The position numbers were made by a program, and so were the translations under genes. Positions 3,572-45,199 of a DNA stretch of 64,000 bases are shown here, piece after piece. The stretch is taken from contig CAUWGC010000002.1 of the NCBI GenBank assembly GCA_963558405.1, positions 40,852 through 104,851 on the forward strand. Direction: 5' to 3'. This stretch comes from an uncultured Clostridia bacterium (GTDB lineage Bacteria; Bacillota; Clostridia; TANB77; CAG-508). The notes under the pieces were generated by a model. That model did not search any database. It worked only from the letters and a program-made list of their open reading frames with translations, and had not been told where the DNA came from. Numbering within the stretch: position 1 is the stretch's first letter; the number at the start of each line of letters is the position of its first letter.

Positions 3572-3588
3572 GACCTTCGGGTTATGAG
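3572..3588. repeat. attL core (17-bp direct repeat)
   Basis: It is identical to 45152-45168. Confidence 0.6.
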
Positions 3589-6854: not shown

Positions 6855-7562
6855 ATGATTGAAGTTATGATTGCAGATGATAATACAGCACTTTGTGAAA
6901 GCTGTTTCAAATTTCTAACAAAAGATAAAGAAATAAAAATTGTTTCGTATGCCTTAAATGGCGAAGAAACACTAGAAAAATACTTTGAATTTAAACCTGA
7001 TGTATTATTATTAGACTTAGATATGCCTATAATAAGTGGCATTGATGTTATTAACACATTACATAGGTTTTCTGAAGAAAGATCAAAATGTAATATAATT
7101 GTTGTTTCAGGAAGTTATGAAAAATTAAATCAATTATATAATACAGCACAAGTTTTTAGAGTAATACCTAAACCTGCTAATTTTGATTACATATTAGAAA
7201 CAATAAAAGAAGTACCTTTAAAAAGCCAAGAAATAAACCAAAAAGAATTAAAAGAAATTCTAATAGAATTAAGATTAAATGTTTTCTCTACTAGAGTAAA
7301 ACACCTAATATCAGCAATAAATGTAGCATATAAACACCCTTATTTATTGAACAATATAAAAGACTTATATTCAGAAGTTGCAAAAGAATATAATATAAGT
7401 CCGAAAACAGTTAAATGGAGTATTAGAACTTCAATAGACACTTTAAATCGTTCTCTGTCTATTGATAATCTTTGCTCCGTTTTTTCTTTAAAATTTAGAC
7501 CTGATACAGTAACACCAAAATATTTTATAACTTTACTTGTAGAATATTTTGAGCAAGAATAA
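6855..7562 (+). CDS. Spo0A-family response regulator (REC domain + Spo0A_C DNA-binding domain)
   Basis: The REC domain has ADDN, the phospho-acceptor in LLLDLDMP and the lysine in IPKP. The C-terminal domain aligns with B. subtilis Spo0A_C: ILIEL..AI, LLNNIKDLYSEVAKEYNISPKTVKWSIRTSI, and PKYFITLL against PTNSEFIAMI. Confidence 0.75.
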   Translation: MIEVMIADDNTALCESCFKFLTKDKEIKIVSYALNGEETLEKYFEFKPDVLLLDLDMPIISGIDVINTLHRFSEERSKCNIIVVSGSYEKLNQLYNTAQVFRVIPKPANFDYILETIKEVPLKSQEINQKELKEILIELRLNVFSTRVKHLISAINVAYKHPYLLNNIKDLYSEVAKEYNISPKTVKWSIRTSIDTLNRSLSIDNLCSVFSLKFRPDTVTPKYFITLLVEYFEQE

Positions 7563-8246: not shown

Positions 8247-9623
8247 TTATGAATTTTTGTAATCATCCATATATTTTATATCATTTTCTTTGCAAAATTG
8301 AATTGCATCCTTATAAATCTCATCCTCATTATCCTTATTATCGTATAATTTTCTCGGAACAACTATAGACTTTTCAATTATTGCTTTATATTCTTTTTTA
8401 TTAAATAAATTTGCATCATATTCAGGTAACATATAAAAATCTGTTGCTACTTTATTTATAAACATACTCATCTTCTTAGAATAGTACATTGTAATATATA
8501 ATTCTTGTGTATTTTTCATAGGTAAAAGTTTCATAAGTCTTTTAATTGAAAGTACATCAATATTCATATCCAAAATTATTTTATGAAGTTTGTTTATTTC
8601 TTTTTCTTTTTTTACAAGTTCTTCAGCAGAAACATAATCATCCTCATCGTATTCATCAATATCATCATAATATATATCATATTTGCTTAAATCAGTTGTC
8701 TCAGTAATTTTTTCAATAACTCTTTTTGTTTTCTCTACTGGATATGGTGCATTTTCTCTTGTATAATATTGAGCATCTACTACAGTTGCAATTACTATAT
8801 TATCAGCCATATAAACTACAACTTTATCCCCTATTTTAATGTTTGTATCTTCTGACATATAGCAATATGTTTTTCCGTTATTATATTCATCATATTCAAC
8901 AGTTAAGTAATAATATTGTTCCTGTAAAGAATCAGGTATTTCATAATCTTTTCCTTCAATATCACTTTTAGCATCTTTCTTTTTATTATCTTCTTTTTCA
9001 GGGAATATCTGAATTATATAATTATATATCTCTTTTATTTCTTCCTTGTCAAAACATAAATTATAATAATTGGGAGATAATGCCCCATCCTCAAATAAAT
9101 TGATTCTCAAATCTACTAAATTATTAGTATATGTATAAAACTCTAAATCAGGCTCAATAAAACTTATACTTTCATCTTTTTTTAATTTATCATTTATGAA
9201 TTTTTGTAATAAATTTCTAAGTTCCACTACTTCAAATTCTAATAAAAGTTCGCCTTTGTTATTATAATTAAAATATTTATTTGAAATAGAGATTATAACA
9301 TCACACCACCTATCATAAGGATCGTGTTCAAAATCTTTTTTTCTAATAATCTTTAAATAAAAATCTGTATAATCATCAATTTTTAATCTTAAAAAATTAT
9401 TTTGTTCTTTTTTTGCTATTAAAATTTCCAATCGTGGTAAATATTCTTCTTTATTGTATTTATATATAGTTTCAGGAGAAGGGAGCATATATACATCTCT
9501 TTCTTCTAGCTTTCCTTCTTCGTACATTTTAATAGCTTGTATAAGTTCATCTCTTTCTTTATATAATTTTTGTAATGACCATTTCTTCTTTTCATCTATA
9601 TAAACTTCAGGACTTATCATCAT
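8247..9623 (-). CDS. hypothetical protein (acidic, 458 aa), co-operonic with Type III R-M
   Basis: It is a long, uninterrupted ORF lying 21 bp after the upstream gene. I recognise no motif. Confidence 0.45.
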   Translation of the reverse strand: MMISPEVYIDEKKKWSLQKLYKERDELIQAIKMYEEGKLEERDVYMLPSPETIYKYNKEEYLPRLEILIAKKEQNNFLRLKIDDYTDFYLKIIRKKDFEHDPYDRWCDVIISISNKYFNYNNKGELLLEFEVVELRNLLQKFINDKLKKDESISFIEPDLEFYTYTNNLVDLRINLFEDGALSPNYYNLCFDKEEIKEIYNYIIQIFPEKEDNKKKDAKSDIEGKDYEIPDSLQEQYYYLTVEYDEYNNGKTYCYMSEDTNIKIGDKVVVYMADNIVIATVVDAQYYTRENAPYPVEKTKRVIEKITETTDLSKYDIYYDDIDEYDEDDYVSAEELVKKEKEINKLHKIILDMNIDVLSIKRLMKLLPMKNTQELYITMYYSKKMSMFINKVATDFYMLPEYDANLFNKKEYKAIIEKSIVVPRKLYDNKDNEDEIYKDAIQFCKENDIKYMDDYKNS

Positions 9624-10652: not shown

Positions 10653-12884
10653 TTATAGAACATTATTCAAATTAACCCAGTTTTCATCATTCATATCTTC
10701 AATATATTTTTCTGAAAATAGTATTTTAAGTAGTGGCTTTTCTCCCATAATATGTTCTTCTCTAACAAATCCATATTTCAGGTTATTTTTATTACAGTAT
10801 CTTTTTAAAGCCTCATATTTTAAAGGTGTTGGCAACTCATCAACATTTCTACTACTACCATCTTCATTTTCTCCACCTTTAGTTTCAATTATCCAAATAT
10901 CTTCGTTTTTATCTTGTAATATAAAGTCAGGATAAAAAGTATTATATCTATTGGCATCAGTATATATTATAGAAAAAAATTCTTCAGAACTTTCTCCGTT
11001 TTTATATATCCATTTAATATTATTACTTTCTTCAGCATAATCAATCAATAACTTTTCTGGTAATGATAGTTTTTCATTTGATGGATATAGTTCATATACA
11101 TTTTTCTCTAATATTTTTATATCCTTCTTATATTTTTTTACATATTCTTTTTCCGGCAATATTTTAATAATCTTTTGAACAGGAAATTTAAAATCTGTCT
11201 TTTTTATGTTTTTTTCATTTAATTCAAGTTGTCTTGCCTCGCTTTTTATAGCCTCATATATATCATATTTTAATAATTGTTTGTTATTTATGATAAAAGA
11301 AACAAATTCTAATCTATTCAATTTTAACAAACTAAATTTATTAAACATTTTTTTAGAAAATATCTTTTTTAATACTGCTTTTAATCTCGTTTTATCTATT
11401 ATTCCTGATTTTGCACCAATTTCATATATTGCTAAATTTAATTCTTTTTCCATTGACTTTTCTTTAACATTTATTTTTAAAGTAATATCATCTAGTTTTG
11501 AAATATTATCAGCTGAAACAGTTTGTCCTCTTTTTGTTTTAAAAAGAACATCAGTAGATAAATTATATTCATTGGCTTGTAAATTTATTTTATTTTTATC
11601 AATATTATCAGAAAGATTATATTTTTCTTTTAAATAATAATAAATAACTTCGATATCTTCCTTATTTATTCTAGTTCCCACAAGCTCTTTTTTGCATTCC
11701 TTTGTTAGCTTGAAATCATAGTATTTATCCTTTAAATATATTATTTTTTTTCTAACTGTGCTATCTTCAAAAATACTATTTACTCCATTTACAAAATCGC
11801 TATCATAAGTATATAAATATGAAGTGTTTAGAATATCATTTTTATAATGAATACCATTTATTGATCTTCGTATTCTACCAATAGTCTGAATAGTAAAAAT
11901 ATCATTCATATTTTCTCTTAGCTTAACTAATATTTTTGCTCTAGGGCAATCCCAACCTGTTGCAATAGCTTGTTTCATAATTAGTACTGAACTTTTGGAA
12001 TTATACTCAGAAATATCAGATGTATTTTCGTTTTTTTTGCTTAACCAAATTGCTAATTCTCCATTTTTTACAGTAATACCAAGAGTTTCTAAATATTTCT
12101 GTATATCTACATATAATTCCTCTTGATTATTTGGTATTTGTATTAAAATTAAAGGATTTATATTTAGATTTTCATCTAAAAATGCTTTATGTATTTCTGC
12201 TTGTTTTTTTAAAGCTAAATCAATTAAATAATTAGTTGGATTTTCCACTGTATTTTCATCTTTAACATCTTCATTTATTGCAACCATCTTAGTAATTAAA
12301 CCTTCGGAAATCACATCTTCTTCATTTATTTCAATAAGCAGAGAATCTTCTTTTTCTTTAACTGTAGCTGAAATTCCTATTAAAAATTCAGGATCAAATT
12401 TAGCTTTTAAATCATCTGTTTTAATAGTTTTATTATAATGTTGTTCATCAACAATTATAATAAATTTTAATCCTTCAAGCTTAGCCTCATCAATTCGTTC
12501 AAATAAATTATTTTTTTCAGTTTTTGATATGGCATTATTTCCCTTTTTAGTTACCACTTCCCAATTTATAAAACAAGTATCTCCTGCATCGAATCCGTTT
12601 TGTAATACTTCTTTTATTGTTTTAGTATTTCTATTAGGAATATATTGTTCCATTTTACTTTTGGATTGCTCTTCTAAATCTCCAATACCTGGTGTAAACC
12701 AAATAAATATTGCTTTATCATCAATATTTTCTAAGTATTGATTGATAAAATTAACCATAATAATTGTTTTTCCACTTCCTGTTGGAGATTTAATCAATAT
12801 TTCATTACTTTTATTAGTAGAAGTTGCATCTAATAAATCAAGAATACACTTTTTTTGAAATTCTTTTAATATTATTTCTTTCAT
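10653..12884 (-). CDS. res: Type III restriction enzyme Res subunit (SF2 helicase + C-terminal PD-ExK nuclease)
   Basis: It carries motif I SPTGSGKT, motif II IIIVDEQH, motif VI QTIGRIRR, and a C-terminal nuclease motif DFILQD...IWIIETKG. It directly abuts mod. Confidence 0.75.
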   Translation of the reverse strand: MKEIILKEFQKKCILDLLDATSTNKSNEILIKSPTGSGKTIIMVNFINQYLENIDDKAIFIWFTPGIGDLEEQSKSKMEQYIPNRNTKTIKEVLQNGFDAGDTCFINWEVVTKKGNNAISKTEKNNLFERIDEAKLEGLKFIIIVDEQHYNKTIKTDDLKAKFDPEFLIGISATVKEKEDSLLIEINEEDVISEGLITKMVAINEDVKDENTVENPTNYLIDLALKKQAEIHKAFLDENLNINPLILIQIPNNQEELYVDIQKYLETLGITVKNGELAIWLSKKNENTSDISEYNSKSSVLIMKQAIATGWDCPRAKILVKLRENMNDIFTIQTIGRIRRSINGIHYKNDILNTSYLYTYDSDFVNGVNSIFEDSTVRKKIIYLKDKYYDFKLTKECKKELVGTRINKEDIEVIYYYLKEKYNLSDNIDKNKINLQANEYNLSTDVLFKTKRGQTVSADNISKLDDITLKINVKEKSMEKELNLAIYEIGAKSGIIDKTRLKAVLKKIFSKKMFNKFSLLKLNRLEFVSFIINNKQLLKYDIYEAIKSEARQLELNEKNIKKTDFKFPVQKIIKILPEKEYVKKYKKDIKILEKNVYELYPSNEKLSLPEKLLIDYAEESNNIKWIYKNGESSEEFFSIIYTDANRYNTFYPDFILQDKNEDIWIIETKGGENEDGSSRNVDELPTPLKYEALKRYCNKNNLKYGFVREEHIMGEKPLLKILFSEKYIEDMNDENWVNLNNVL

Positions 12885-14534
12885 TTATAACTCCTCAATT
12901 TCGCTCCTGTAATAATACTCAGGCACATATATTATTTTTATATTATTTTCTATAAAACTATTTTCGACCTCTGAATCAAGTAGTATATCGCTAGAAATAT
13001 ATACTTTACTTATATCAGGTAAACTCCAATTTTTTATATCCGATAGGTCATCTTCTTTTAAAATCAATTTTATTTTATTATTTATTCTAATATTATTTTC
13101 CAAAACAACTAATTCTTTTATATTATTTAAAAGTTCATCACTTAATTCAATATCCTCGTTTTGTAAATGATATCGTTTTACATATTCAGTCGTATAATAT
13201 TTTAAATTTGCTGGTATTCCTATATGATCTCCGTACCCTTTAATTACCTTTTCAATTCGCTTATATGTAATTTCTTCACAAATATTATTCTCATTGTTTG
13301 TACATAAAATAAATTTTCTGTTTTTTCCATCTTCCTTATTTTGTTCTAACACAGCCTGAGCTGTTGTTCCACTTCCTGCAAAAAAATCTAAAACAGTTTC
13401 ACTTTTTGTATGTTCTAATAGAAATCTTATTATTTCAACAGGTTTAGGATTAGGAAAAACATCTTTTTTTTCAAAAATTTCCGTTAAGGTTTTAGTAGCA
13501 TCGCCAGTTTCAGCTAAATCATATAAAATACTTCTACTTTTAATAATTTTATATTCATTTCCTGTATAATAAGTTTTTTCGTAAGGTATCCATCTATTGT
13601 TTTTTTCATCTTTATTCCAATAAATTAAATCATTCTTAATTAAATCTTCCATTCTATTTTTTCCAACTCTCCATCGACCATCTTGTCCATCTGGAGCAAT
13701 GGGAAATAATTCATTATTATCAGGATCTAAAATGGAAAAATACATTGTTGGTCTATCTTCTCTATGAGCTGAACTCCCCCACTTTTCTAATTTTGTAATA
13801 TTAAATTTTCCATTCTCATCTTCATATTTATAACTTTCATCTGTCTTTTGAACTTTTTTATCTATCCAATTAAACTTATCAGTTTTTCTGTATCCGAAAA
13901 TATACTCGTGTTCAGTTACAAAGAACTCATCTGTTTGACCTCCACCATATTTTTTTCTCCAAATCAGAGTTCCAATAAAATTATTTTCTCCAAATATATC
14001 ATCACACAATAATTTTAATTGAGCAAACTCATTTTTATCTATACTAATAAAAATAACTCCATCATTTGATAATAGTTTTCTTGCTACATTTAATCGTTTT
14101 GCCATAAAAGAAATCCATTTTGAATGTCTATATCCATCATCTATTCCAATTCTTTTATCATCATATATAAACTCTTTATTTTCTGTATTATATGGCGGAT
14201 CTATATAGATAAAATCAATTTTACTTTTGTGTGTTTTTTCTAATAGATACAAACTATGTAAATTATCGCCTTCAAGTAAAAAGTTAATATTATTATTTTT
14301 ATCTGAACAAATTTCTTTTTCCTCTATTTCTCTAAAAACAGGAATATTTTTTTTCAGTTCTTCATCTACTTTTTCCTCGTGTTCTTCCCAAATAAGTCCA
14401 TATTTTTTACTTTTAAGCTCTTTTTCAATTTCTGTAAGCTTAGCTTTTATTTCTATATCTGTATTTCGTTCTTTTAAAAATTCTAAAGTTTCAATTAAAC
14501 TATCTCTTTTTTGTTGGGATAAATTTGTACTCAT
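12885..14534 (-). CDS. mod: Type III R-M Mod subunit (beta-class N6-adenine DNA methyltransferase)
   Basis: Motif IV IYIDPPYNT comes before motif I FFAGSGTTAQAV. That order is the beta-class one typical of Type III Mod. Confidence 0.8.
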   Translation of the reverse strand: MSTNLSQQKRDSLIETLEFLKERNTDIEIKAKLTEIEKELKSKKYGLIWEEHEEKVDEELKKNIPVFREIEEKEICSDKNNNINFLLEGDNLHSLYLLEKTHKSKIDFIYIDPPYNTENKEFIYDDKRIGIDDGYRHSKWISFMAKRLNVARKLLSNDGVIFISIDKNEFAQLKLLCDDIFGENNFIGTLIWRKKYGGGQTDEFFVTEHEYIFGYRKTDKFNWIDKKVQKTDESYKYEDENGKFNITKLEKWGSSAHREDRPTMYFSILDPDNNELFPIAPDGQDGRWRVGKNRMEDLIKNDLIYWNKDEKNNRWIPYEKTYYTGNEYKIIKSRSILYDLAETGDATKTLTEIFEKKDVFPNPKPVEIIRFLLEHTKSETVLDFFAGSGTTAQAVLEQNKEDGKNRKFILCTNNENNICEEITYKRIEKVIKGYGDHIGIPANLKYYTTEYVKRYHLQNEDIELSDELLNNIKELVVLENNIRINNKIKLILKEDDLSDIKNWSLPDISKVYISSDILLDSEVENSFIENNIKIIYVPEYYYRSEIEEL

Positions 14535-15871: not shown

Positions 15872-16129
15872 TCATTTTTTATATAGCTTATCAAAAGCTA
15901 TTTTCTCTTGTTCTTCCATAAAGTTGTCTATTACCTTTTTTCTAAAAAGAACTCTCCCACCCACTCTAAAATGAGGTATCTCATTCTTTCTTACTAGCTG
16001 ACCTATAAGCCAATAAGAAATCCCCATATATTTCGCAGTTTCTTCCATAGTTAAGGTAGTTCTTTCTACTTTTTGATAATTCTCTAAATCTGGCATAATC
16101 TCACCTCCTAGCAAAATTATACAAAGCAA
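15872..16129 (-). CDS. excisionase-family (MerR-like HTH_17) DNA-binding protein
   Basis: It contains TMEETAKYMGISYWLIGQLVRKNEIPHFRVGGRVLF. The real start is probably at 16096, where a GGAGGTG RBS precedes the ATG. Confidence 0.5.
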   Translation of the reverse strand: MLCIILLGGEIMPDLENYQKVERTTLTMEETAKYMGISYWLIGQLVRKNEIPHFRVGGRVLFRKKVIDNFMEEQEKIAFDKLYKK

Positions 16130-16157: not shown

Positions 16158-16286
16158 AAAAAATTGCAAAAAAAATAAAGGGCAAAAGATTTTACTCTCT
16201 CGCCCTTCATTGTAGTAAAAAATAATTTATATAATATGAATTCATAAATTATCTCTATTATATTTAATTTTTCTTAAAAGTCAACA

Positions 16287-19200
16287 CTAACAACCTGTTC
16301 TAGGAAGTTTTTGTGTTGTTTCTATTTCTTTTAAATAAGTTATTGTTTTCCAATCATCTTTATCTTCTACATAAATATCTTTATAGTTGCCTGATGCTTT
16401 TGTATGATTTACAAATATAAATCCATTTGGTAAATTATCTAACATATCACAATATAATCTAGGTTTTTCAACTTCTTTAAAGTCTGATTTTACTGTTCCA
16501 AATCTGAATTGAAAATCTGTTATAAATTCTCCCTCTTTTAATGTTGCATCTGTAAATTTAACTTCATTATTAACTAATGTACTCAAACCATCTTTTAGCA
16601 TTATATAGTCATCACTTAAATTAGTTTTATACCATACAGAATATGTTAAATCTTCATTCCAAGTTCCTGTATAAATTTTATTTGCTCTTAAAGCATTTGT
16701 AGGTAATGAATCACTCCAAGTGAAATTATCTAATGCTATGTTAGATTTATTATGAATATTTGAAAAATCATAATATATGTTATCTTTATTTTGTGTTTCT
16801 ATAAATCCTTTTTTAGTAACTTCAATATCAATATCTACATTATCATCTTCTACTTTTGCATCTACAATTTCTTGATGTTTTATTATTTCTGCCTCAAATA
16901 TTTCATCTGTAAGTATATAGTAATCAGGGCTTTCTACTTCTTTTAAAGTATATTTTCCTTTTAATAATTCTTTTGTTGTAGCCTCTCCGTTTTTATCTGT
17001 AAGTAAAGTATCTACTAAATTATTATTTTCATCATATACTTCAAATTTTGCATTTTCAAGTCTTGAACCTTTTACATCTCCATTGTATTTATTATCTTCT
17101 TTGCTTACCTTTATTACTCTGATATAGCCTTTTATTAGTTCGTTTTCAAAAGTTAAATTTGTAATTTGATCTTGTGTTAATGTTACTGTTTGCGGTATTT
17201 CATTTAACACATAATTTTCTAATGTTTTTGATTCTTGTACTGTGTATTTTTTATCTATTCTTAATCTTTTACTTGTAGCCTCTCCATTTTCATCTGTAAT
17301 TAAAGTATCTACTAAGTTTTTATCTTCATCATATACTTTGAATTCTACACCTTTTAGCTTAACCTCATTATTGTCTTTGTCAACTTTTATTACTTTGATT
17401 TGACCTTTCTTTAGTTCATTTTTAAAAGTTAAATCTGTAATTTGGTTTTGTGTTAATGTTACTATTTGTGGTATTTCATTTAACACATAATTTTCTAATG
17501 TTTTTGATTCTTGTACTGTGTATTTTTTATCTATTCTTAATCTTTTACTTGTAGCCTCTCCATTTTCATCTGTAATTAAAGTATCTACTAAGTTTTTATC
17601 TTCATCATATACTTTGAATTCTACACCTTTTAATTTTACCTCATTATTATCTTGATCAACTTTTATTACTTTGATTTGACCTTTTTTTAATTCATTTGTA
17701 AAAGTAACTGTTTTAATTTGTTCTGCCTCTAACACTACTGTTTGTGTCGTTTCATTTAATACATAATTTTGTAAAGTTTCTTTTTCTCTAATTGTTAATT
17801 TTGAATAATCTCTTATTGCATATCTTGATGTATAAGCTTCTCCGTTTTCATCTGTTGTTATTGTTTCTAAAACTTTTCCGTTTTCATCTAAAACATCAAA
17901 TTTTACTCCTTGTAGTTTTACTTCTTTATTGTCTAAATCAATTTTTATAACTTTTACTTGACCTTTCTTCAATTCATTTTCAATAGTATTTTCTTCAGTT
18001 GTATTCCATTTAACTTCAACAGTTGTATCTTCTGCAAGATTATACCATTTTCCTGTATTTTTTTCGATTAGTTTATAACTTCCTGTTCTTAGGTTTTTTA
18101 TGCTTATTTCTCCATTAACATCAGTTGTATATGTTCCAATTACTCTTTGAAATTCCTCTGAATATAAATCAAATTGTACATTTCCTAGTGCTATTTTGTG
18201 ATTATCTTTATCTACTTTATATATTTTCAAATTTCCTTTTTTATGATCATTTGTTATATTTTGATTAGTAGATTTGTTATACTCTACATTTACATCAAAA
18301 GTAGCTTTATTTATAACATAATTATCATTTGTAGAAATTTCTTTTAATTTGTAATTGCCCTGATATAGTCCACTAAATGTTGCTATACCATTTAAATTTG
18401 TAGTAGCATTTGCGACTACTGTTCCATCTGCTTTTGTTAATTGAAATGTTACACCTGCGATTGGTTTTGATGTTTCACTATCTGTTTTATTTATTTGTAA
18501 TTTTCCTGTATTAGTTTTAATGTTAAGAGTAGCACGACCAACACCATCTCCAAAAGGATCATAAGTTAGTGCATAGTTTTGAGTACCTTCTGTTCTAGTT
18601 TTACCATAAAATACAGGATATGTTTTACATTTACCTTGCACATTGATTATAGCATTTGAAATATCTTGTACCATTTGAGATTTAGGTATTTTTACATACA
18701 TACTTTCATTTCCATTAAATGAATTTGTTTGGATACCGTTTGAATTAGTTATAATAGTTCCTTGTGGTAAGTTAGCAGTAGCTGTAATTGTATAATTTGT
18801 CATCTCTACTGTACTTGAAACATTTATTTTTTGAGTATAGTAATTCCCATCCTCATATAAATTGCCTGAATTAGATAATGTTATATTAGGATCTGAAGGC
18901 ATTTGACTACCATTTCTTCCTATGTTTACCATATTAACTATTGCATTTTTAATAGCATCGCCTCTAGCATCTGCTCCTTGATTTGCTCCTCTAAATCTAG
19001 TTACTGGATCAAAGTTATATAAAATGCAATATACTGCTTGTTTAGTAGCTTGAAAAGCCTCTAAATCATTTGCAACTCCCAATTCACTTGCTGATTTATA
19101 AGGAAATCCATTTATAATTGTTCTCCATATTCTAACATCTCCTAAAACATCAGTAACACTAGCATTTACATCAACAGTATATCCATCTAGCTCCCCAACA

Positions 19201-19454
19201 CCTGGATGTTCTCTATTTACACAATAAGCAGGATATTCTTTTCCACCTTCACTATATGTAGTATAAGTGGTTGTAATATAATACCAAGCATTTTTTGCCT
19301 CATTCCAATATTGTAAATGGTATTCCACATCTCCTCTATTTTGAATATTTGCTGAACTAATCTCTGTTGCAAATACACTAGGGTTTATTGTAGAAAATAA
19401 TGTTAATACTAACATTAGCATTGCTAAAATTCTTTTACTTTTTACTTTTATCAT
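16287..19454 (-). CDS. cell-surface adhesin with repeated Cna B-type (prealbumin-fold) domains and C-terminal LPRTG
   Basis: It has a signal peptide. Four near-identical ~90-aa repeats follow (KKGQIKVIKVDKDNNEVKLKGVEFKVYDEDKNLVDTLITDENGEATSKRL...), matching the Cna-B pattern. The ORF ends ...KLPRTGC directly at the stop. The N-terminal region has YCVNREHPG and QATKQAVY, which could be a thioester-domain Cys/Gln pair. Confidence 0.7.
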   Translation of the reverse strand: MIKVKSKRILAMLMLVLTLFSTINPSVFATEISSANIQNRGDVEYHLQYWNEAKNAWYYITTTYTTYSEGGKEYPAYCVNREHPGVGELDGYTVDVNASVTDVLGDVRIWRTIINGFPYKSASELGVANDLEAFQATKQAVYCILYNFDPVTRFRGANQGADARGDAIKNAIVNMVNIGRNGSQMPSDPNITLSNSGNLYEDGNYYTQKINVSSTVEMTNYTITATANLPQGTIITNSNGIQTNSFNGNESMYVKIPKSQMVQDISNAIINVQGKCKTYPVFYGKTRTEGTQNYALTYDPFGDGVGRATLNIKTNTGKLQINKTDSETSKPIAGVTFQLTKADGTVVANATTNLNGIATFSGLYQGNYKLKEISTNDNYVINKATFDVNVEYNKSTNQNITNDHKKGNLKIYKVDKDNHKIALGNVQFDLYSEEFQRVIGTYTTDVNGEISIKNLRTGSYKLIEKNTGKWYNLAEDTTVEVKWNTTEENTIENELKKGQVKVIKIDLDNKEVKLQGVKFDVLDENGKVLETITTDENGEAYTSRYAIRDYSKLTIREKETLQNYVLNETTQTVVLEAEQIKTVTFTNELKKGQIKVIKVDQDNNEVKLKGVEFKVYDEDKNLVDTLITDENGEATSKRLRIDKKYTVQESKTLENYVLNEIPQIVTLTQNQITDLTFKNELKKGQIKVIKVDKDNNEVKLKGVEFKVYDEDKNLVDTLITDENGEATSKRLRIDKKYTVQESKTLENYVLNEIPQTVTLTQDQITNLTFENELIKGYIRVIKVSKEDNKYNGDVKGSRLENAKFEVYDENNNLVDTLLTDKNGEATTKELLKGKYTLKEVESPDYYILTDEIFEAEIIKHQEIVDAKVEDDNVDIDIEVTKKGFIETQNKDNIYYDFSNIHNKSNIALDNFTWSDSLPTNALRANKIYTGTWNEDLTYSVWYKTNLSDDYIMLKDGLSTLVNNEVKFTDATLKEGEFITDFQFRFGTVKSDFKEVEKPRLYCDMLDNLPNGFIFVNHTKASGNYKDIYVEDKDDWKTITYLKEIETTQKLPRTGC

Positions 19455-19461
19455 TTTATCA

Positions 19462-19497
19462 ATTCCTTTCCATAAAAAAAGACACTTGAAAAAGTGC
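19462..19497 (-). terminator. intrinsic terminator-like hairpin after the 19509 ORF
   Basis: The hairpin GGCACTTTTTCAAGTGTC is followed by a T-run on the minus strand. Confidence 0.4.
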
Positions 19498-19508
19498 CTA
19501 ATTAAATA

Positions 19509-19700
19509 TTATTCATTATCTTTGTATTCTGAAAATTCAACTCCTTTGAAGTCATTTTCATCTAATACATATTCTTCTTTTTTATATTTTTCTTTTGTTA
19601 TTTCAATTGCTTGTTCAATATTCTCAGCTTCAATTTCAACGACTCTTTGTAGCAATTCCTCAATTTCAATTTTGTAAATTCTTTTCATACTCACTTCCAT
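19509..19700 (-). CDS. hypothetical small acidic protein
   Basis: A 63-aa ORF tightly packed between the neighbouring genes. Confidence 0.3.
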   Translation of the reverse strand: MEVSMKRIYKIEIEELLQRVVEIEAENIEQAIEITKEKYKKEEYVLDENDFKGVEFSEYKDNE

Positions 19701-20399
19701 CTATATTAAATAACATTCTGTTGTTATATATTGTCCATTATTATAATAATCTCTTGCATATATTCTGATTGTTCCAAATTTATATTTAATTTTATCAATT
19801 ACCCTTTGTTCAGTATATGTAAATTGAGAAGTTAATTCAACAATAGAACTATCTACAACAATGTTATATCCATATAATTTCATATCTTCACTTTGATTAT
19901 TATTTATAATATTTTTAATAGAGTTAATCATAGCATCATTAGTTTTATATTCCTCTCCTTTAATTACAAGCTCTTCTTTTACAACTTCTTGCTTAGTTGT
20001 TTCAGGTTGTATTTGTATGGATTCTTCTTTTGTTTGTTGTGGTGTATTGTTATTATTTTTATTTTCTGTACTTTCCTGTTTTACTTCTGCAATAGGTTGT
20101 TCTTGAACAGTTGTAACTTGTGGAGTAGAAATCTTATTTTGTTTTACTTCAGTTATATTACTTTTGGCTGGAGTCTTTTCGATATTTTTTTCTTGTGTTT
20201 GTTCAATTTTTTCATATACAATCATACTTTCATCTGAAGTATATATTTGACTTGTACTTTCCACATTTTCAACTATATTTTGTAGATTATTATTATCAAT
20301 AATTTCATTTTTAGGATTTGTACTTTTATAGGTCATATAATTGGATAATATAGAAGTTCCAAATACAATAAATAAGATTAAAAAAACATATTTTTTCAT
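19701..20399 (-). CDS. membrane-anchored secreted protein (T/Q/E-rich linker)
   Basis: It has an N-terminal TM/signal anchor (FLILFIVFGTSILS) and a low-complexity QTE-rich middle region. Confidence 0.4.
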   Translation of the reverse strand: MKKYVFLILFIVFGTSILSNYMTYKSTNPKNEIIDNNNLQNIVENVESTSQIYTSDESMIVYEKIEQTQEKNIEKTPAKSNITEVKQNKISTPQVTTVQEQPIAEVKQESTENKNNNNTPQQTKEESIQIQPETTKQEVVKEELVIKGEEYKTNDAMINSIKNIINNNQSEDMKLYGYNIVVDSSIVELTSQFTYTEQRVIDKIKYKFGTIRIYARDYYNNGQYITTECYLI

Positions 20400-20421
20400 A
20401 ACAGATCATCTCCTTAATATC

Positions 20422-20461
20422 ATTATAAAACGATTTAAAAGACAATCCAAAACCCTTTTTA
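20422..20461 (-). promoter_or_regulatory. conserved ICE promoter motif copy 2
   Basis: On the minus strand: AAAAAGGGTTTTGGATTGTCTTTT, then N12, then TATAAT, about 22 bp upstream of the start at 20399. Confidence 0.5.
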
Positions 20462-20467
20462 ATATTT

Positions 20468-21112
20468 TTATTGTCCGTAGTCCATACCTTCAGAAGATTC
20501 TATTGCTTGAACACAAAGTCTTTTTTCTTTTTGCCCTGCAACACAAGTAATAAGTGTAATTCTATTATCTTCGGTTTTCTGTAAATATGACCAATCTTCT
20601 TCATCAATTATCTTTTTTACAGTTACTACATATCTTTTAGTACCATAGTTTGTTTGATAATATATTTCACTACCAATTTTTATTTTCTTTAAATTCTTAA
20701 AAAAGTCGCCTTTATTTCCTGAATTATGAGAGGCTAAACCAACATTTCCCTCATAAATAGAAGTAGAAGGAAAATGACCTATTGTTTCAGATAGTGTAGA
20801 TAATTCAACACTTTCTCTGATAGGTACATTATCAAGTAAAATATCAGGAATTGTAAGTGTTCCTATTTCATCATCATAATGAATAATAATCTGCTCAATA
20901 TCCTCAATAGGTGTATCATCTAAATCTATATTATCGCCAACAACTATATTTTCAGCATCTTTATTTGCTTTATATACAGGATATTTAATTACAAAAAAAA
21001 TAACTCCAACAAGAGTTATAATAGCAACTAAAATTATCGCAATTAAAAATTTATTTTCTTTTTCCACTTTTTGCCTCCTAAATTCTAGTTTCAAATATAT
21101 ATTTTTCATCAT
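20468..21112 (-). CDS. srt: sortase (class B-like transpeptidase)
   Basis: It has an N-terminal TM segment, a His motif GLASHNSGNKGDFFKNL, the catalytic-Cys motif RITLITCVAG, and a downstream Arg (KEKRL). Confidence 0.75.
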   Translation of the reverse strand: MMKNIYLKLEFRRQKVEKENKFLIAIILVAIITLVGVIFFVIKYPVYKANKDAENIVVGDNIDLDDTPIEDIEQIIIHYDDEIGTLTIPDILLDNVPIRESVELSTLSETIGHFPSTSIYEGNVGLASHNSGNKGDFFKNLKKIKIGSEIYYQTNYGTKRYVVTVKKIIDEEDWSYLQKTEDNRITLITCVAGQKEKRLCVQAIESSEGMDYGQ

Positions 21113-22163
21113 TAGTATTGACTAACATTTTAATATTTGTATTACCTTTTTTAACAGTTATCATTTTTCCTTGCATTTTATCTGTTAATTTTTTAGAAAA
21201 TTCTAATTTGTATTTATTAGTTGTTTCAAATAATGAATATTTAGTTAAATTGATTATATTATTTCTATTCATTAGTGTTTTACCAACTTTTACATATTCG
21301 CCATCTTTATAGTTATATACTGTTACATTTCTAGTAAAGAAAAATAGAATTACTAATATAATTCCAGTAGTACCTCCTGCAATAGGTAGTAAATTATCCT
21401 CTTTTTCTTCAATAGTTTCAGGTATAGGATCAGACTTTTCTTCTTCAACTTTATTATATTTAACTGTATAAATATATGGACTTTCTACTGTTTTTGTTGC
21501 TGTCCCTGAATATTCAGCAGTTACACTATAGGTATTAGGATAATCAATTCTTTGTTTACCTGCATAGTAACATTTTGCTGTATATAAATTTGCAACTTCA
21601 TATTCGCCAATCATTTTAGTAGTTTCAACTTCCCATTCAACATTTAATAGATTTAAAGTTAATCCATTTTTAACTGTTTGCTTAGGTATAAAATCTAAGT
21701 CATTTCTTTCTAGGTTAGTGTAATTTATTGTTTCTTCTATTAAATCTTCTCTAAAGCCATTGTAGTTCGTTTTAATTTGTATATTTTGAGTGTTTAATAG
21801 ATATTCTCCAATATATCCATCTTTTTCATAACTAATAGTTGTCCCTAATTGATTTATTATACTTTCTAAGTTATTTGTTTTACTTGTTATTTTTTTAGTT
21901 GTAGTTATATCAATAGTATCTGTCATAGATCCTCCTTCAGAAGTATAACTATCAAAAGTATATTTATCTCCAAAAACTTCAATATCTTTTTCTAAATTTT
22001 CTATAAAAGTATTTTGTTCATCTTTTTGTACTAAATATGTTATATAACAATTTAATTTATTATCAGTAACATTTGTGTTATCTAGCGTTACTGCAAAACA
22101 ATTTGTAGCAGTAAGTAAAGTGCAAAAACTACATACTGCAAATATTCTTTTTATTAACTTCAT
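21078..22163 (-). CDS. secreted / membrane protein (possible second sortase-associated surface protein)
   Basis: It has a signal peptide and an internal TM segment (TTGIILVILFFFTRN). It lies just upstream of the sortase gene. Confidence 0.4.
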   Translation of the reverse strand: MKLIKRIFAVCSFCTLLTATNCFAVTLDNTNVTDNKLNCYITYLVQKDEQNTFIENLEKDIEVFGDKYTFDSYTSEGGSMTDTIDITTTKKITSKTNNLESIINQLGTTISYEKDGYIGEYLLNTQNIQIKTNYNGFREDLIEETINYTNLERNDLDFIPKQTVKNGLTLNLLNVEWEVETTKMIGEYEVANLYTAKCYYAGKQRIDYPNTYSVTAEYSGTATKTVESPYIYTVKYNKVEEEKSDPIPETIEEKEDNLLPIAGGTTGIILVILFFFTRNVTVYNYKDGEYVKVGKTLMNRNNIINLTKYSLFETTNKYKLEFSKKLTDKMQGKMITVKKGNTNIKMLVNTNDEKYIFETRI

Positions 22164-22174
22164 TTTTTTACCTC

Positions 22175-22402
22175 CTAAAATATATTTATTATTCCAAATT
22201 TATTAGCAAGATAAGTAGCTCCAATGGAGCATAAAATTATAATGCCTAAATAGAATAAAATATTAAATATTCTTGATAAAATATTAAATAAAAAAAGTAG
22301 TGCCTTTAGAACTGAATTCTGTTCATTGACAACTACTTGTTCTTCGTATTTTTCTTTGATTTTTTGTTTTTTTAAATATTCTTTATATAAATTTTTCCTC
22401 AT
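22175..22402 (-). CDS. small membrane protein
   Basis: A 75-aa ORF with a hydrophobic C-terminal half. Confidence 0.3.
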   Translation of the reverse strand: MRKNLYKEYLKKQKIKEKYEEQVVVNEQNSVLKALLFLFNILSRIFNILFYLGIIILCSIGATYLANKFGIINIF

Positions 22403-23508
22403 TATTTACCTCTTTTCAGAAAACTGAACAAACCTTTATTTTCAACTACTTCAAGTTTATTAGATTTTTCAGAAATGTAATCCTTAAATATTTCGTGATA
22501 TATTCCTGTATTTATACTGCTATTAAAAGTATCTGTTGTAAATTCAGAAAAATATATATGTTTTATATATGATTTTAAAATCTTTCTAAATTTTGCTTTT
22601 TCCTCATTACTAGAAAAATTAAATATATAATTTACTTCAGGTATTTTTTCTAACAAACTTAAAACTCTAAATGTTTCATCTGTTTCCCAAGCCTTAGTAC
22701 CACCAACTATAATTTTTACTTCTTTTGATAAAAAATTATCTAAAATATTTTCATTTAGAATTCCATAATCATATATGTAAAAATCATAGCCATATTGCAT
22801 AGCATCAATTTTATTGTCATTACTATAAAGATCAATACCTTTATAAGAATATAAACCATCTTTTTTTACCACACCATCTAAGGTTTCTATATTTTTAATT
22901 TCATCTTTATCTGTTGCACAAATATAACAAGCATTCATATTAAGACTTTTTAGAAACATTGTTATTAAAATTGCTTGTGTAGTAACTCCTATATGTTTTT
23001 CAGTTCCTGCAACAGCGATATTTACAAATTGTTTTAATGTTTTATATTCTTTCTTTATAATTATTTTGTTTTTCTTTCCACCTTCGATTTTCTGCCTAAA
23101 TCTGACAGCATCTTTATACTGGCACCCTTCATCACTTAAACATTTCTTAAATTGTTCTTTTTGTTCATAATAGGTATTGCTATTTACAAAATTATAAATA
23201 CCTTCATTGAATAGTTTAGCCAATAGATTATTTCCTTCTTGAAATCCTAAAGCAACTATAATAATTCTGATATTATACATACTTTTAATTGCTACAACTG
23301 ATTGCACAATTTCATCTTCTGATTCCTTAGTCGAGGCTATATCAATAATAATCTGCTTGTAATTATTTAAGTTTCTAAGTTCTTGTACTGCAAATCTTTT
23401 AAGACTATCAACACCAGTTAAAACTTGTGGGCTTTCAAATCCATTTTCTTTGCATACCTCATAAATTAACTTTTCATTTTCTCTAGTAATTGCTAAAATC
23501 AATTTCAT
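22402..23508 (-). CDS. hypothetical protein with degenerate ParA/MinD-like P-loop region
   Basis: NIAVAGTEKHIGVTTQAIL resembles a deviant Walker A (IAV..KGGVGKTT) with the GK lost. The N-terminus looks receiver-like. This is the CpaE/TadZ architecture. Confidence 0.3.
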   Translation of the reverse strand: MKLILAITRENEKLIYEVCKENGFESPQVLTGVDSLKRFAVQELRNLNNYKQIIIDIASTKESEDEIVQSVVAIKSMYNIRIIIVALGFQEGNNLLAKLFNEGIYNFVNSNTYYEQKEQFKKCLSDEGCQYKDAVRFRQKIEGGKKNKIIIKKEYKTLKQFVNIAVAGTEKHIGVTTQAILITMFLKSLNMNACYICATDKDEIKNIETLDGVVKKDGLYSYKGIDLYSNDNKIDAMQYGYDFYIYDYGILNENILDNFLSKEVKIIVGGTKAWETDETFRVLSLLEKIPEVNYIFNFSSNEEKAKFRKILKSYIKHIYFSEFTTDTFNSSINTGIYHEIFKDYISEKSNKLEVVENKGLFSFLKRGK

Positions 23509-30038: not shown

Positions 30039-30407
30039 TTATCTATAATATCCAATTATTAAGTTTATAAGTCCACTAGCAACAACTACACCAACACAGC
30101 AAATTATTGCTACCTTTATTCTTGAATCCCATCTCTTGCCATCCATTTCATCACTTGATGATTTTCTAAGCAAGTAATAGCCAACTAATAATACTGTTAA
30201 AACAGGAGCAAGTATTAAGAGCCAGTTAGTTAAATCTGTTATTAAATTTTGTGTACCTGTTGCAATTTGACTGTCTTGAACTCCTGCAAAACAAGTGCTT
30301 GTTGCACAAATAAGACTTGTTGTAACAAGTCCTGCTTTTCCTATTCTTTTTGAATATTTTTTTAATTTTTCTTTTATCTTTTCCTTCATACATAAATTCT
30401 CCTTCAT
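30039..30407 (-). CDS. small membrane protein (possible VirB2-like pilin)
   Basis: It has a signal-like N-terminus and two hydrophobic segments. The ORF is 122 aa. Confidence 0.3.
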   Translation of the reverse strand: MKENLCMKEKIKEKLKKYSKRIGKAGLVTTSLICATSTCFAGVQDSQIATGTQNLITDLTNWLLILAPVLTVLLVGYYLLRKSSSDEMDGKRWDSRIKVAIICCVGVVVASGLINLIIGYYR

Positions 30408-36385: not shown

Positions 36386-36999
36386 TAAAATTCCATCTCC
36401 TCTCCATTTTCTATTTGTGCCTCTAATTCTTGAATTTTATTATTTAAAGTTTCAACTTCTCCTTTTAATTTTAAATTTTCTTCTATTAGTAATCCTTTAT
36501 CTATTGCATTAGTTCTTGGATCTTCAAAGTCATTATTTATAGCCTTTATTTTACCCATACTCAAATATTGACTTTCTCCAACTATAATATGATCTGTTAG
36601 TTGAATATTAAATGCTTTTAACATTTTACCTGTAATATTTGTTATATGTTTATCAGGTTTACTTGGCTCTAAATCATTTGAAGGATGATTATGTACTAAT
36701 ATCACTTTTTCACTTGCTGTTATTAAAGCTGTTCTAACAATATATTTACTATCTACATATATTTCATTACATTTACCAACTCCAATTAAACTTATATTTC
36801 TAACATTATTTCTTGAATCTAATCCTATAAATAATAAATGCTCTTGAACAGCATCTTTTATTTCTTGTACTTCTTTTAATTTATATACATCATCTGAACT
36901 TGCTACTTTCATAATATCTCTTTCTTCTACTGGAGGCTTTTTTTGTATTTCTATTTCTAACCCCATACTTTTAAAACTCCATTTCATCTGTTTCTTCAA
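36385..36999 (-). CDS. RadC-like JAB domain protein (DUF2466)
   Basis: The JAB motif reads VILVHNHPSNDLEPSKPDKHITNIT. The ORF ends GEEMEF. Confidence 0.8.
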   Translation of the reverse strand: MKKQMKWSFKSMGLEIEIQKKPPVEERDIMKVASSDDVYKLKEVQEIKDAVQEHLLFIGLDSRNNVRNISLIGVGKCNEIYVDSKYIVRTALITASEKVILVHNHPSNDLEPSKPDKHITNITGKMLKAFNIQLTDHIIVGESQYLSMGKIKAINNDFEDPRTNAIDKGLLIEENLKLKGEVETLNNKIQELEAQIENGEEMEF

Positions 37000-37969
37000 T
37001 TTCTTCTAAGATAATTGTTCTATCTTCTAAATCTTTCTTAATATCTTCAATTTGACTTTCTTCAACAGATTTAAAATCTCCATTTTCGTAATCATCTCCA
37101 ATAATAAAACAGTTTCCTGCAATATAATCATAGTCAAATTGTAGATTAGGTTTTAAATTTGTAATTTTACCTTCTTCATTACATATAAGAAGTAAATCAT
37201 CTTTATAAGGCACAACTTCAATTAGTCCTCCAACTAATTTTTGTTTTGCCTCTAAGGTATCTTCAATTTCCATAACAATAGGATCTTTTCCCACTTCTTT
37301 ATAGACAATTCTCAACTTTTTTTCTTCAGATTCTTCTTCATCGTATCCTAGTTCTTCTTTTATTTCTTCTAAAGAATAATAATGTAAATCAATATCTCCA
37401 CAAGCTCCATTTTCAAGATAACCATTTTCATATAAACTAACATCATCATCCATACCATATTTTTCGTAGTCAAAACAATCAGTAACATAGTATTTTTCTA
37501 ATATTTCATCTAAGCCATTCCATATAGCTTTAGACATTCCATATTTTTCTTCGTTAGAAAGATTTTCTGAATTTTCTTCATAAGGATAAAAAGGTATATT
37601 ATCTTCTTGTAGCATAACATTTATTATTTCTTCTATATCATCTGTACCTTGATATTCAATATAAGCTTCAACAGCCTCCATATTATTTACTTTTTCAGAT
37701 GCCATTGCTAATAAATTAAGCATATTCAAATTACTATATTCACTAACTTTTATTGGTAAATCAGTTTCATAATCATTTATCATATATTCTTCATAACATA
37801 CACCATCTTCAGTGAGTGCTTTTTCAACTTCTTCTTGTGTTAATTGAAGTCCCACTTTTTCTCTTAAAAAAGTATCTAATTCTTTTTTAGAAACAGGAAG
37901 TTCTAACCATTCGCCAACAAGTTCTCCTTCGTTATATTTTCCTAAGTTTCCAATCCAAACATTAAGCAT
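36971..37969 (-). CDS. ardA: ArdA-like anti-restriction protein (double length, acidic C-terminal extension)
   Basis: The N-terminal VWIGNLGKYNEGELVGEWLELP is the ArdA signature. The protein is highly acidic and ends EETDEMEF. Confidence 0.65.
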   Translation of the reverse strand: MLNVWIGNLGKYNEGELVGEWLELPVSKKELDTFLREKVGLQLTQEEVEKALTEDGVCYEEYMINDYETDLPIKVSEYSNLNMLNLLAMASEKVNNMEAVEAYIEYQGTDDIEEIINVMLQEDNIPFYPYEENSENLSNEEKYGMSKAIWNGLDEILEKYYVTDCFDYEKYGMDDDVSLYENGYLENGACGDIDLHYYSLEEIKEELGYDEEESEEKKLRIVYKEVGKDPIVMEIEDTLEAKQKLVGGLIEVVPYKDDLLLICNEEGKITNLKPNLQFDYDYIAGNCFIIGDDYENGDFKSVEESQIEDIKKDLEDRTIILEEIEETDEMEF

Positions 37970-45123: not shown

Positions 45124-45199
45124 TGGTTGCGGGGGATAGACTCGAACTATCGACCTTCGGGTTATGAGCCCGACGAGCTGCCAACTGCTCCACCCCGCG
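45124..45199 (-). tRNA. initiator tRNA-fMet (anticodon CAT)
   Basis: The reverse complement CGCGGGGTGGAGCAGTTGGCAGCTCGTCGGGCTCATAACCCGAAGGTCGATAGTTCGAGTCTATCCCCCGCAACCA is nearly identical to E. coli tRNA-fMet. It has the C1:A72 mismatch, the GGG/CCC anticodon stem, and an encoded CCA. Confidence 0.9.
45152..45168. repeat. attR core inside the tRNA anticodon loop, 3' anticodon stem and variable region
   Basis: It is identical to 3572-3588. Confidence 0.6.

Follow-up and report, generated by a model that had tools for sequence, protein, structure and literature searches.

The DNA studied here, called the window below, is a 64,000-nucleotide stretch of contig CAUWGC010000002.1 (assembly GCA_963558405.1) from an uncultured Clostridia bacterium, and our subject is a 1055-aa adhesin that is encoded, together with a sortase, on an integrative and conjugative element (ICE) in this stretch. 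The sequence has a GC content of about 25%. The 17-bp sequence GACCTTCGGGTTATGAG is directly repeated at 3572-3588 and at 45152-45168; one copy lies just outside the integrase gene and the second inside a tRNA-Met gene (45124-45199), and these repeats are probably the attL and attR cores of the ICE, which spans about 41.6 kb. The element encodes a tyrosine integrase, an Xis-like helix-turn-helix (HTH) protein, type III restriction-modification, an MT-A70 methylase, ParB and ArdA, and its conjugation genes code for a MobA/VirD2-type relaxase, a coupling protein (T4CP), VirB4, a TrbL-type protein, an M23 hydrolase and PcfM. The chromosomal flank carries genes for a PBP5-type carboxypeptidase, an LCP protein and a VanW/peptidoglycan-binding protein, indicating that the host has a peptidoglycan wall. 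The adhesin is encoded inside the conjugation module, in a block of conserved order (p368-p75-p361-sortase-p232-PcfM-adhesin) that is syntenic in related ICEs. An earlier interpretation made from the letters alone (the sequence-only reading) had called these genes ICE cargo. Their placement in an ICE was right, but in this ICE family the block with the adhesin and sortase genes belongs to the conserved content of the conjugation module, at whose edge it lies, beside a variable region of defence genes; the element itself is integrated at tRNA-Met in an uncultured gut Clostridium with a cell wall. The features are compiled in Table 1.

Table 1 Features of the adhesin and sortase region, with positions in the window
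Feature	Coordinates	Strand	Basis or description
Adhesin gene, 1055 aa	16287..19454	-	signal peptide, class II thioester domain (TED), 6 SpaA/CnaB-type domains, pilin-like C-terminal domain, LPRTGC-stop
Signal peptide, aa 1-29 (...SVFA, then TE)	19368..19454	-	sequence and hydropathy
Class II thioester domain, aa ~30-305	18540..19367	-	Pfam TED, PDB sequence matches, invariant C78/Q292
Stalk of six SpaA (PF17802) CnaB-type domains, aa 317-870	16845..18506	-	Pfam
C-terminal beta-sandwich domain, pilin/CnaA-like, aa 871-1049	16308..16844	-	alignment, AlphaFold2 (AF2) model, Foldseek, residue mapping
Predicted minimal sorting signal LPRTG	16293-16307	-	followed by Cys1055 at 16290-16292
Stop codon TAG of the adhesin	16287-16289	-	
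Terminator-like hairpin with T-run	16174..16211	-	~75 nt past the adhesin stop
DpnD/PcfM-like small protein	19509..19700	-	Pfam
p232	19701..20399	-	N-terminal hydrophobic anchor or signal, low-complexity linker, small conserved C-terminal domain
Sortase	20468..21112	-	PF04203; N-terminal transmembrane (TM) segment; H129, C190 (TLITC), R198
p361	21078..22163	-	signal peptide, ~215-aa all-beta ectodomain, TM segment aa 256-278, ~80-aa cytoplasmic beta domain
p75, small membrane protein of the conserved block	22175..22402	-	hydropathy, synteny
p368, first gene of the conserved block	22402..23508	-	no family match

The adhesin begins with a Sec signal peptide (MIKVKSKRILAMLMLVLTLFSTINPSVFA, followed by TE), and the hydrophobic stretch of this peptide (aa 9-30) is, by hydropathy, the sole hydrophobic segment of the protein. 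At the opposite end the protein reads ...ETTQKLPRTGC, with LPRTG at aa 1050-1054, and the TAG codon follows directly. The textbook sorting signal is three-part, and the retention of a substrate at the membrane for the sortase is commonly ascribed to a need for its hydrophobic segment and charged tail. The adhesin carries an LPXTG pentapeptide near its C-terminus as canonical wall-anchored proteins do, but a hydrophobic membrane-spanning segment past LPRTG is absent from its C-terminus and from all downstream frames; a positively charged C-terminal tail is absent as well, the protein terminating at LPRTGC. The sequence-only reading had described the length, the signal peptide and the tail-less KLPRTGC end correctly, and had explained this end by a truncated or frameshifted sorting signal or by an unusual anchoring mode.

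A search with the C-terminal 237 aa of the adhesin returned 69 proteins of 35-93% identity, most of which end in LP[RK]TG plus one residue, and a scan of species-representative genomes found 80 loci, all in metagenome-assembled genomes of the uncultured gut Clostridia type. Among the 82 related loci from other species-level genomes that we used for counting, the end is LPxTG plus one residue in 69, LPxTR plus 0-8 residues in six, a full hydrophobic and basic tail in three, and extended by three extra residues in two. An exhaustive HMMER search with the C-terminal domain yielded 669 representatives of 50%-identity clusters (E<=1e-3); among the 142 of these that were newly examined, 113 end in LPxTG plus one residue, down to about 35% identity, and about three are tailed. 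Members of the family reach 2775 aa (cluster representatives), and the adhesin clusters bear no informative name, the sole label being 'hypothetical protein' of a Clostridia bacterium. In the alignment, whose mean column identity is 55%, every sequence has the L, P and T of the motif, and the conservation of the G is at least 90%; the linker immediately before the motif is variable, and the residue past the Gly varies freely (C, K, F, Y, I, V, M, W, E, N, S). Most relatives thus stop one residue past LPxTG, the outcome that had been named beforehand as arguing against truncation.

Two observations could be taken to mean that a local truncation, a frameshift or a sequencing error removed a normal tail and left a decaying or mis-assembled copy. 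The alternative frame past the stop indeed reads LLVLTFKKN and then a stop, as had been noted before, which faintly resembles a tail remnant, and a few close relatives, with C-terminal domains 83-91% identical to that of the adhesin, are fully tailed. However, no tail-coding remnant was found in the three frames past the stop in the window and 12 relatives, the hydrophobic windows there being AT-rich noise, and the DNA past the stop in other minimal-type relatives encodes nothing tail-like. DNA homology between the window and its close tailed relatives ends exactly past the Gly codon, so the tail was exchanged as a block and not lost through a point mutation or a 1-nt indel. In addition, the rest of the open reading frame (ORF) is intact with its functional residues conserved, and an assembly artefact shared by independent assemblies from many studies is implausible. 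With the same end in so many divergent relatives, a local defect is extremely improbable. Recoding or readthrough of the stop codon is also unlikely, because TAA is the commonest stop of the 69 LPxTG+1 loci (TAA 39, TAG 29, TGA 1). Judged by this comparison, the LPxTG-X end is a conserved, predicted minimal sortase recognition signal of an intact gene and not a truncation. Of the two earlier explanations, the unusual anchoring mode has thereby become the main point, while the anchoring itself is a prediction.

Sortases need LPX1TGX2, which is known as their minimal substrate in vitro, and a Gly with a free carboxylate is no substrate (PMC9126251); the end of this family is therefore the shortest sequence usable by a sortase. 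We infer that the adhesin keeps LPX1TG with the Gly carboxyl blocked by X2 and dispenses with the membrane-retention part of the signal. Engineered substrates of the type LPETG-X or LPETGG have the same end format (PMC9126251), but these are laboratory constructs, whereas the family described here is natural and widely conserved. Full-text searches of the open-access literature gave no description of a natural LPXTG-X-stop signal, and this absence is not proof. A sortase-dependent conjugation adhesin of the TIE type is a known kind of protein; what is new, within the literature searchable in this way, is the natural LPXTG-X-stop signal.

A sub-clade of the family (loci L028, L031, L033, L036, L040 and L069; proteins P0016, P0019-P0021, P0026, P0035, P0038 and P0047) has LPxTR with 0-17 non-hydrophobic residues past the motif, and its sortases are 59-68% identical to that of the window. 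Metagenome assemblies break the adhesin gene inside near-identical SpaA repeats (L001 9575-10001; L002 9503-10001), and many database homologues are therefore N-terminally truncated fragments of 240-410 aa. A nucleotide search of plasmids with the 6.7-kb region gave no matches, and the sole match of a plasmid search in protein mode was a Clostridium perfringens plasmid.

The sortase gene lies about 1 kb upstream of the adhesin gene and is flanked by genes for two secreted or membrane proteins (p232 and p361), as the sequence-only reading had seen. The sortase scored 69.7 bits against PF04203 (Pfam cutoff 26.6), and His129, Cys190 and Arg198 are invariant in 71/71 homologues. A sortase homologue is encoded 3-4 kb upstream of the adhesin in 70 of the 82 related loci, inside the block of conserved order described above, and the same sortase subfamily stands beside tailed and tail-less adhesin relatives. 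In a distinct, more distant ICE type (ArdA, DUF3801, TrbL_2), a sortase is likewise paired with a TED-SpaA adhesin that ends in LPxTG plus one residue. The invariant triad and the conserved synteny support the view that this active-looking sortase is the cognate enzyme of the adhesin. As to its class, we leave the sortase unclassified. As listed (214 aa, ATG at 21112), the sortase ORF and the end of the p361 gene overlap. Most homologues are about 199 aa long and begin at the residue that matches codon 16, so translation probably starts at this codon (21067), giving a predicted protein of 199 aa.

The window encodes no LPxTG-type substrate besides the adhesin. Around the related loci, further candidate sorting signals were confined to two canonical NPxTG proteins (L014 and L051). 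In their small ORFs (from ~16141 onward in L014 and from ~11061 onward in L051), NPKTG or NPQTG precedes a hydrophobic stretch and a basic tail, so canonical signals with a different motif coexist with minimal LPxTG-X adhesins.

The N-terminal part of the adhesin is a predicted thioester domain. The TED model PF08341 matched aa 75-176 with 32.8 bits (Pfam gathering score 22), and a phmmer search of the PDB with the N-terminus retrieved the class II TED structures 6FWY (E 6e-10) and 6FWV (E 2.5e-7). Cys78 (codon 19221-19223) and Gln292 (codon 18579-18581; both on the minus strand) are invariant in 32/32 family members and are 214 residues apart. The former sits in the motif [YFL]C-phi-zeta (Y77-C78-V79-N80) and the latter in TQNYA. 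In characterized domains, the bond-forming Gln follows the Cys by approximately 170-205 residues (reference spacings 195, 204 and 171), and the motif TQXX-phi-W belongs to an accessory helix, its Gln and Trp being dispensable for bond formation (PMC6194298). Based on the invariance of the two residues, their spacing and these motif roles, Cys78-Gln292 is the predicted thioester pair. The adhesin deviates from the TQXX-phi-W consensus (T137-K138-Q139-A140-V141-Y142), with Lys in place of the motif Gln and Tyr in place of Trp. The Lys in ATKQAVY (aa 136-142, 19029-19049) is found throughout the clade of the window adhesin, while distant relatives keep ATQFAVW. The sequence-only reading had proposed a thioester N-terminus with YCVNREHPG and QATKQAVY as sources of the Cys and the Gln: the domain and the first motif, which holds Cys78, agree with our data, but the second is the helper motif. 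We likewise rejected the idea that the Gln position of ATKQAVY is the thioester Gln and that Lys at this position means a lost thioester, since the motif Gln does not form the bond (PMC6194298) and Q292 is invariant.

The stalk comprises six stretches matching PF17802 (E 5e-93, Pfam). All six domains have a Lys in the first strand and an Asn or Asp close to the end. Domains 4 and 5 (aa 592-683 and 684-775) are 93% identical and correspond to a 276-nt tandem repeat at 17110-17779, whereas other pairs share 21-55% identity. The four near-identical Cna-B repeats seen earlier are thus of the proposed fold, but there are six domains, of which only two are near-identical.

The last ~180 aa form a separate beta-sandwich in the AF2 model (pLDDT 89.7). 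Foldseek gave weak matches of this model to the Gram-positive pilins CppA, BcpA, SpaD and EbpC (TM-score <= 0.4), the weakness being partly explained by the inclusion of part of the preceding SpaA domain in the model. The adhesin also matched the pilin models GramPos_pilinD1 and SpaH/EbpB weakly. K881, E976 and N1016 are invariant in this domain according to the alignment and residue mapping, which suggests that they form an isopeptide triad.

For p232, there was no match in Pfam or NCBIfam; the protein is membrane-anchored and is kept between sortase and adhesin in related ICEs. The ectodomain of p361 was modelled by AF2 as long beta-strands with a pLDDT of ~95, but it had no significant structural neighbour in the PDB and p361 belongs to no Pfam or NCBIfam family. 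More than 110 homologues of p361 exist, all unnamed, and the ectodomain lysines K161, K203 and K224 are invariant. We considered LLPIAGG before the TM segment of p361 as an internal LPxAG sorting motif and rejected it, since homologues have IIPIASG, VLPVVGG or nothing comparable.

These properties bear on the possibility that the sortase is a pilus-like protein-protein ligase that joins Thr1053 to a lysine or the N-terminus of p361 or p232, of a type IV secretion system (T4SS) component or of another adhesin copy. The TM segment of the partner would then replace the tail, and such a tethered partner would account for its absence. Both p361 and p232 are anchored in the membrane with domains exposed at the surface, and their genes keep strict synteny with that of the sortase, whose annotated ORF even overlaps the end of p361; the invariant lysines of the p361 ectodomain, the pilin-like C-terminal domain, the pilin-model matches of the adhesin and the best NCBIfam score of the sortase, which is for class C (pilus) enzymes, are also in line with ligation. 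However, this class C score is far below the cutoff, neither the adhesin nor any other protein of the module contains a [YFW]PK pilin motif, and a DP[WFY] lid is missing in the sortase. Its closest relatives of solved structure are class A enzymes together with 2KW8 and 4D70, which we take to be class D, and p361 has no recognizable fold relative. Furthermore, the occurrence of the same sortase subfamily beside tailed close relatives points to wall anchoring as the ancestral reaction. Altogether, we consider a ligase of this kind unlikely.

Among known proteins, the adhesin resembles the TIE proteins (BaTIE, 6FWV; EfmTIE86, 6FWY; SaTIE; PMC6194298), which share the signal peptide, the class II TED, the CnaB-type isopeptide stalk and the C-terminal LPXTG. 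The Cys-Gln pairs are comparable (C78-Q292 in the window adhesin, C71-Q266 in BaTIE and C88-Q292 in EfmTIE86), the Gln always being ~200 residues downstream. In BaTIE, LPATG is followed by a transmembrane segment, whereas the window adhesin stops one residue past the Gly; it also differs from the TIE proteins in the TKQAVY form of the helper motif and in an extra pilin-like domain before LPRTG. With canonical sortase-anchored proteins, including PrgB of pCF10 (PMC12857230), the system shares the Sec signal, LPXTG, a His-Cys-Arg sortase and a mating-pair adhesin role, which here is a probable one. The window family differs from them in conservedly having no hydrophobic domain and charged tail, and its adhesive domain is a TED instead of a polymer adhesin domain. 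The 2040-aa adhesin of C. perfringens plasmid pSXP-169_2 (NZ_CP143494.1), the match mentioned above, has a C-terminal domain homologous to that of the window adhesin (44% identity over 146 aa) and, as in the window, adjoins a sortase, annotated as class D, and a T4SS cluster. Unlike the window adhesin, this protein ends canonically with LPHTGG, a hydrophobic stretch and a KKR-rich tail, and its N-terminal region is different. Its ORF runs across the origin of the circular record (L085 in our set), and the distributed gene table does not list it; although relaxase, VirD4, VirB4 and PrgI-family genes are present, the plasmid has been typed as 'non-mobilizable'.

The closest functional precedent is TIEpLS20, the product of gene 34 of the Bacillus subtilis plasmid pLS20, a class II TED adhesin that is required for efficient pLS20 mating in liquid (PMC8092201). 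Both proteins have a class II TED, are encoded in a conjugation operon and have no canonical signal with a membrane segment. TIEpLS20 has no LPXTG, pLS20 encodes no sortase and the host sortases are dispensable, whereas the family described here strictly conserves LPxTG-X and is encoded together with a dedicated sortase. The pLS20 system is one reason to consider that LPxTG-X is not used for covalent attachment, that the adhesin is released or held non-covalently, as proposed for TIEpLS20 (PMC8092201), and that the sortase serves another substrate or trims the end. The classical pathway also predicts secretion of a protein without membrane tail, and some lineages may be able to do without the Gly, as the LPxTR sub-clade suggests. 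It is hard, however, to explain strict L, P and T and exactly one residue past the G across divergent sequences without sortase recognition; the catalytic residues of the sortase are strictly conserved, and alternative substrates are limited to the two NPxTG proteins near related loci. This makes a released or non-covalently held adhesin quite improbable.

Our preferred explanation, which we hold to be rather probable, is that the adhesin is an intact, Sec-exported, fibrillar class II TIE-type adhesin with a minimal LPRTG+1 signal that is attached by the ICE's own sortase, probably to the wall or to a partner protein. That the minimal signal would be functional follows from its conservation, the synteny with the sortase, the LPX1TGX2 chemistry and a precedent with soluble substrates: exogenous soluble LPETG peptides are built into the Staphylococcus aureus wall by SrtA (PMC4723074), so that capture of an untethered substrate is chemically and topologically feasible. 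In the proposed mechanism, the membrane-anchored ICE sortase (H129/C190/R198) would cut the exported and folded adhesin between Thr1053 and Gly1054, freeing Gly-Cys, and would pass it to an amine, most likely of a peptidoglycan precursor or cross-bridge, or alternatively of a module partner. The stalk would then display the N-terminal TED (Cys78-Gln292) outward, where it may bind covalently to recipient or host surfaces and make mating pairs more stable. With a sortase of its own, the ICE would be independent of the sorting pathway of the host. A role in mating-pair or host adhesion is probable, and donor-recipient attachment would fit the pLS20 precedent (PMC8092201).

Several points weigh against this explanation. 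The sortase is below all NCBIfam class cutoffs (class C 62.9 vs 160, SrtD 58.4 vs 140, class D 51.4 vs 165, class E 48.2 vs 160), and the nearest solved sortases are distant (E 1e-12 to 1e-7, with 2KW8 as the best match and 4D70 among the top). LPxTR in place of LPxTG in a sub-clade fits the known sortase specificity poorly, and the relatives are all derived from assembled metagenomes of uncultured bacteria. In work on the sorting signal of protein A, removal of the hydrophobic domain and the charged tail reportedly led to release of the protein into the medium, and this classical behaviour of a tail-less protein leaves the retention of the adhesin unexplained. Finally, TIEpLS20, the sole tested TED adhesin of conjugation, functions without sortase or LPXTG (PMC8092201).

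A further idea, to which we give only a small likelihood, is a tail-independent sorting route: the exported soluble adhesin would be captured by the sortase of the element, possibly in trans between donors, and ligated to the wall or to a p361-type T4SS partner. Together with the thioester, such ligation would link the donor envelope to the recipient surface by a tether with a covalent bond at either end.

A large natural family that keeps LPX1TGX2 alone beside its own sortase would show that retention can be achieved by other means, such as capture after export, a partner protein or some feature of the C-terminal domain. The signal calls into question the assumption that sorting depends on the part that retains a substrate in the membrane. 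The family also provides a defined system for the question, raised with pLS20, of how conjugation adhesins of Gram-positive bacteria are attached to the donor (PMC8092201). As these ICEs are widespread in uncultured human and animal gut Clostridia, the adhesin/sortase pair probably helps to determine how genes move through the gut microbiome. Enzymes evolved on minimal soluble substrates could, moreover, serve sortase-based protein ligation.

Several other features of the element were observed. A promoter-like site (TTGACT, 16-nt spacer, TATAAT; 11/12 matches) is located at 16257-16284 on the minus strand, directly past the adhesin stop, and precedes the gene for the Xis-like HTH protein (15872-16129). 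Accessory genes of the ICE encode an orphan Spo0A-like response regulator (6855-7562, plus strand), a WapI-like immunity-family protein (8247-9623, minus strand), the type III restriction-modification pair (10653-14534, minus strand) and an ArdA-DUF3846 fusion (36971-37969, minus strand); related ICEs have McrBC/Dcm or BREX at the corresponding position past the adhesin. A small ORF at 30039-30407 (minus strand), between the genes for the coupling protein and the TrbL-type protein, showed weak Pfam matches to TrbC/VirB2 and T4SS_pilin below the gathering score. A VirB2-like protein would be unusual in an ICE of Gram-positive bacteria.

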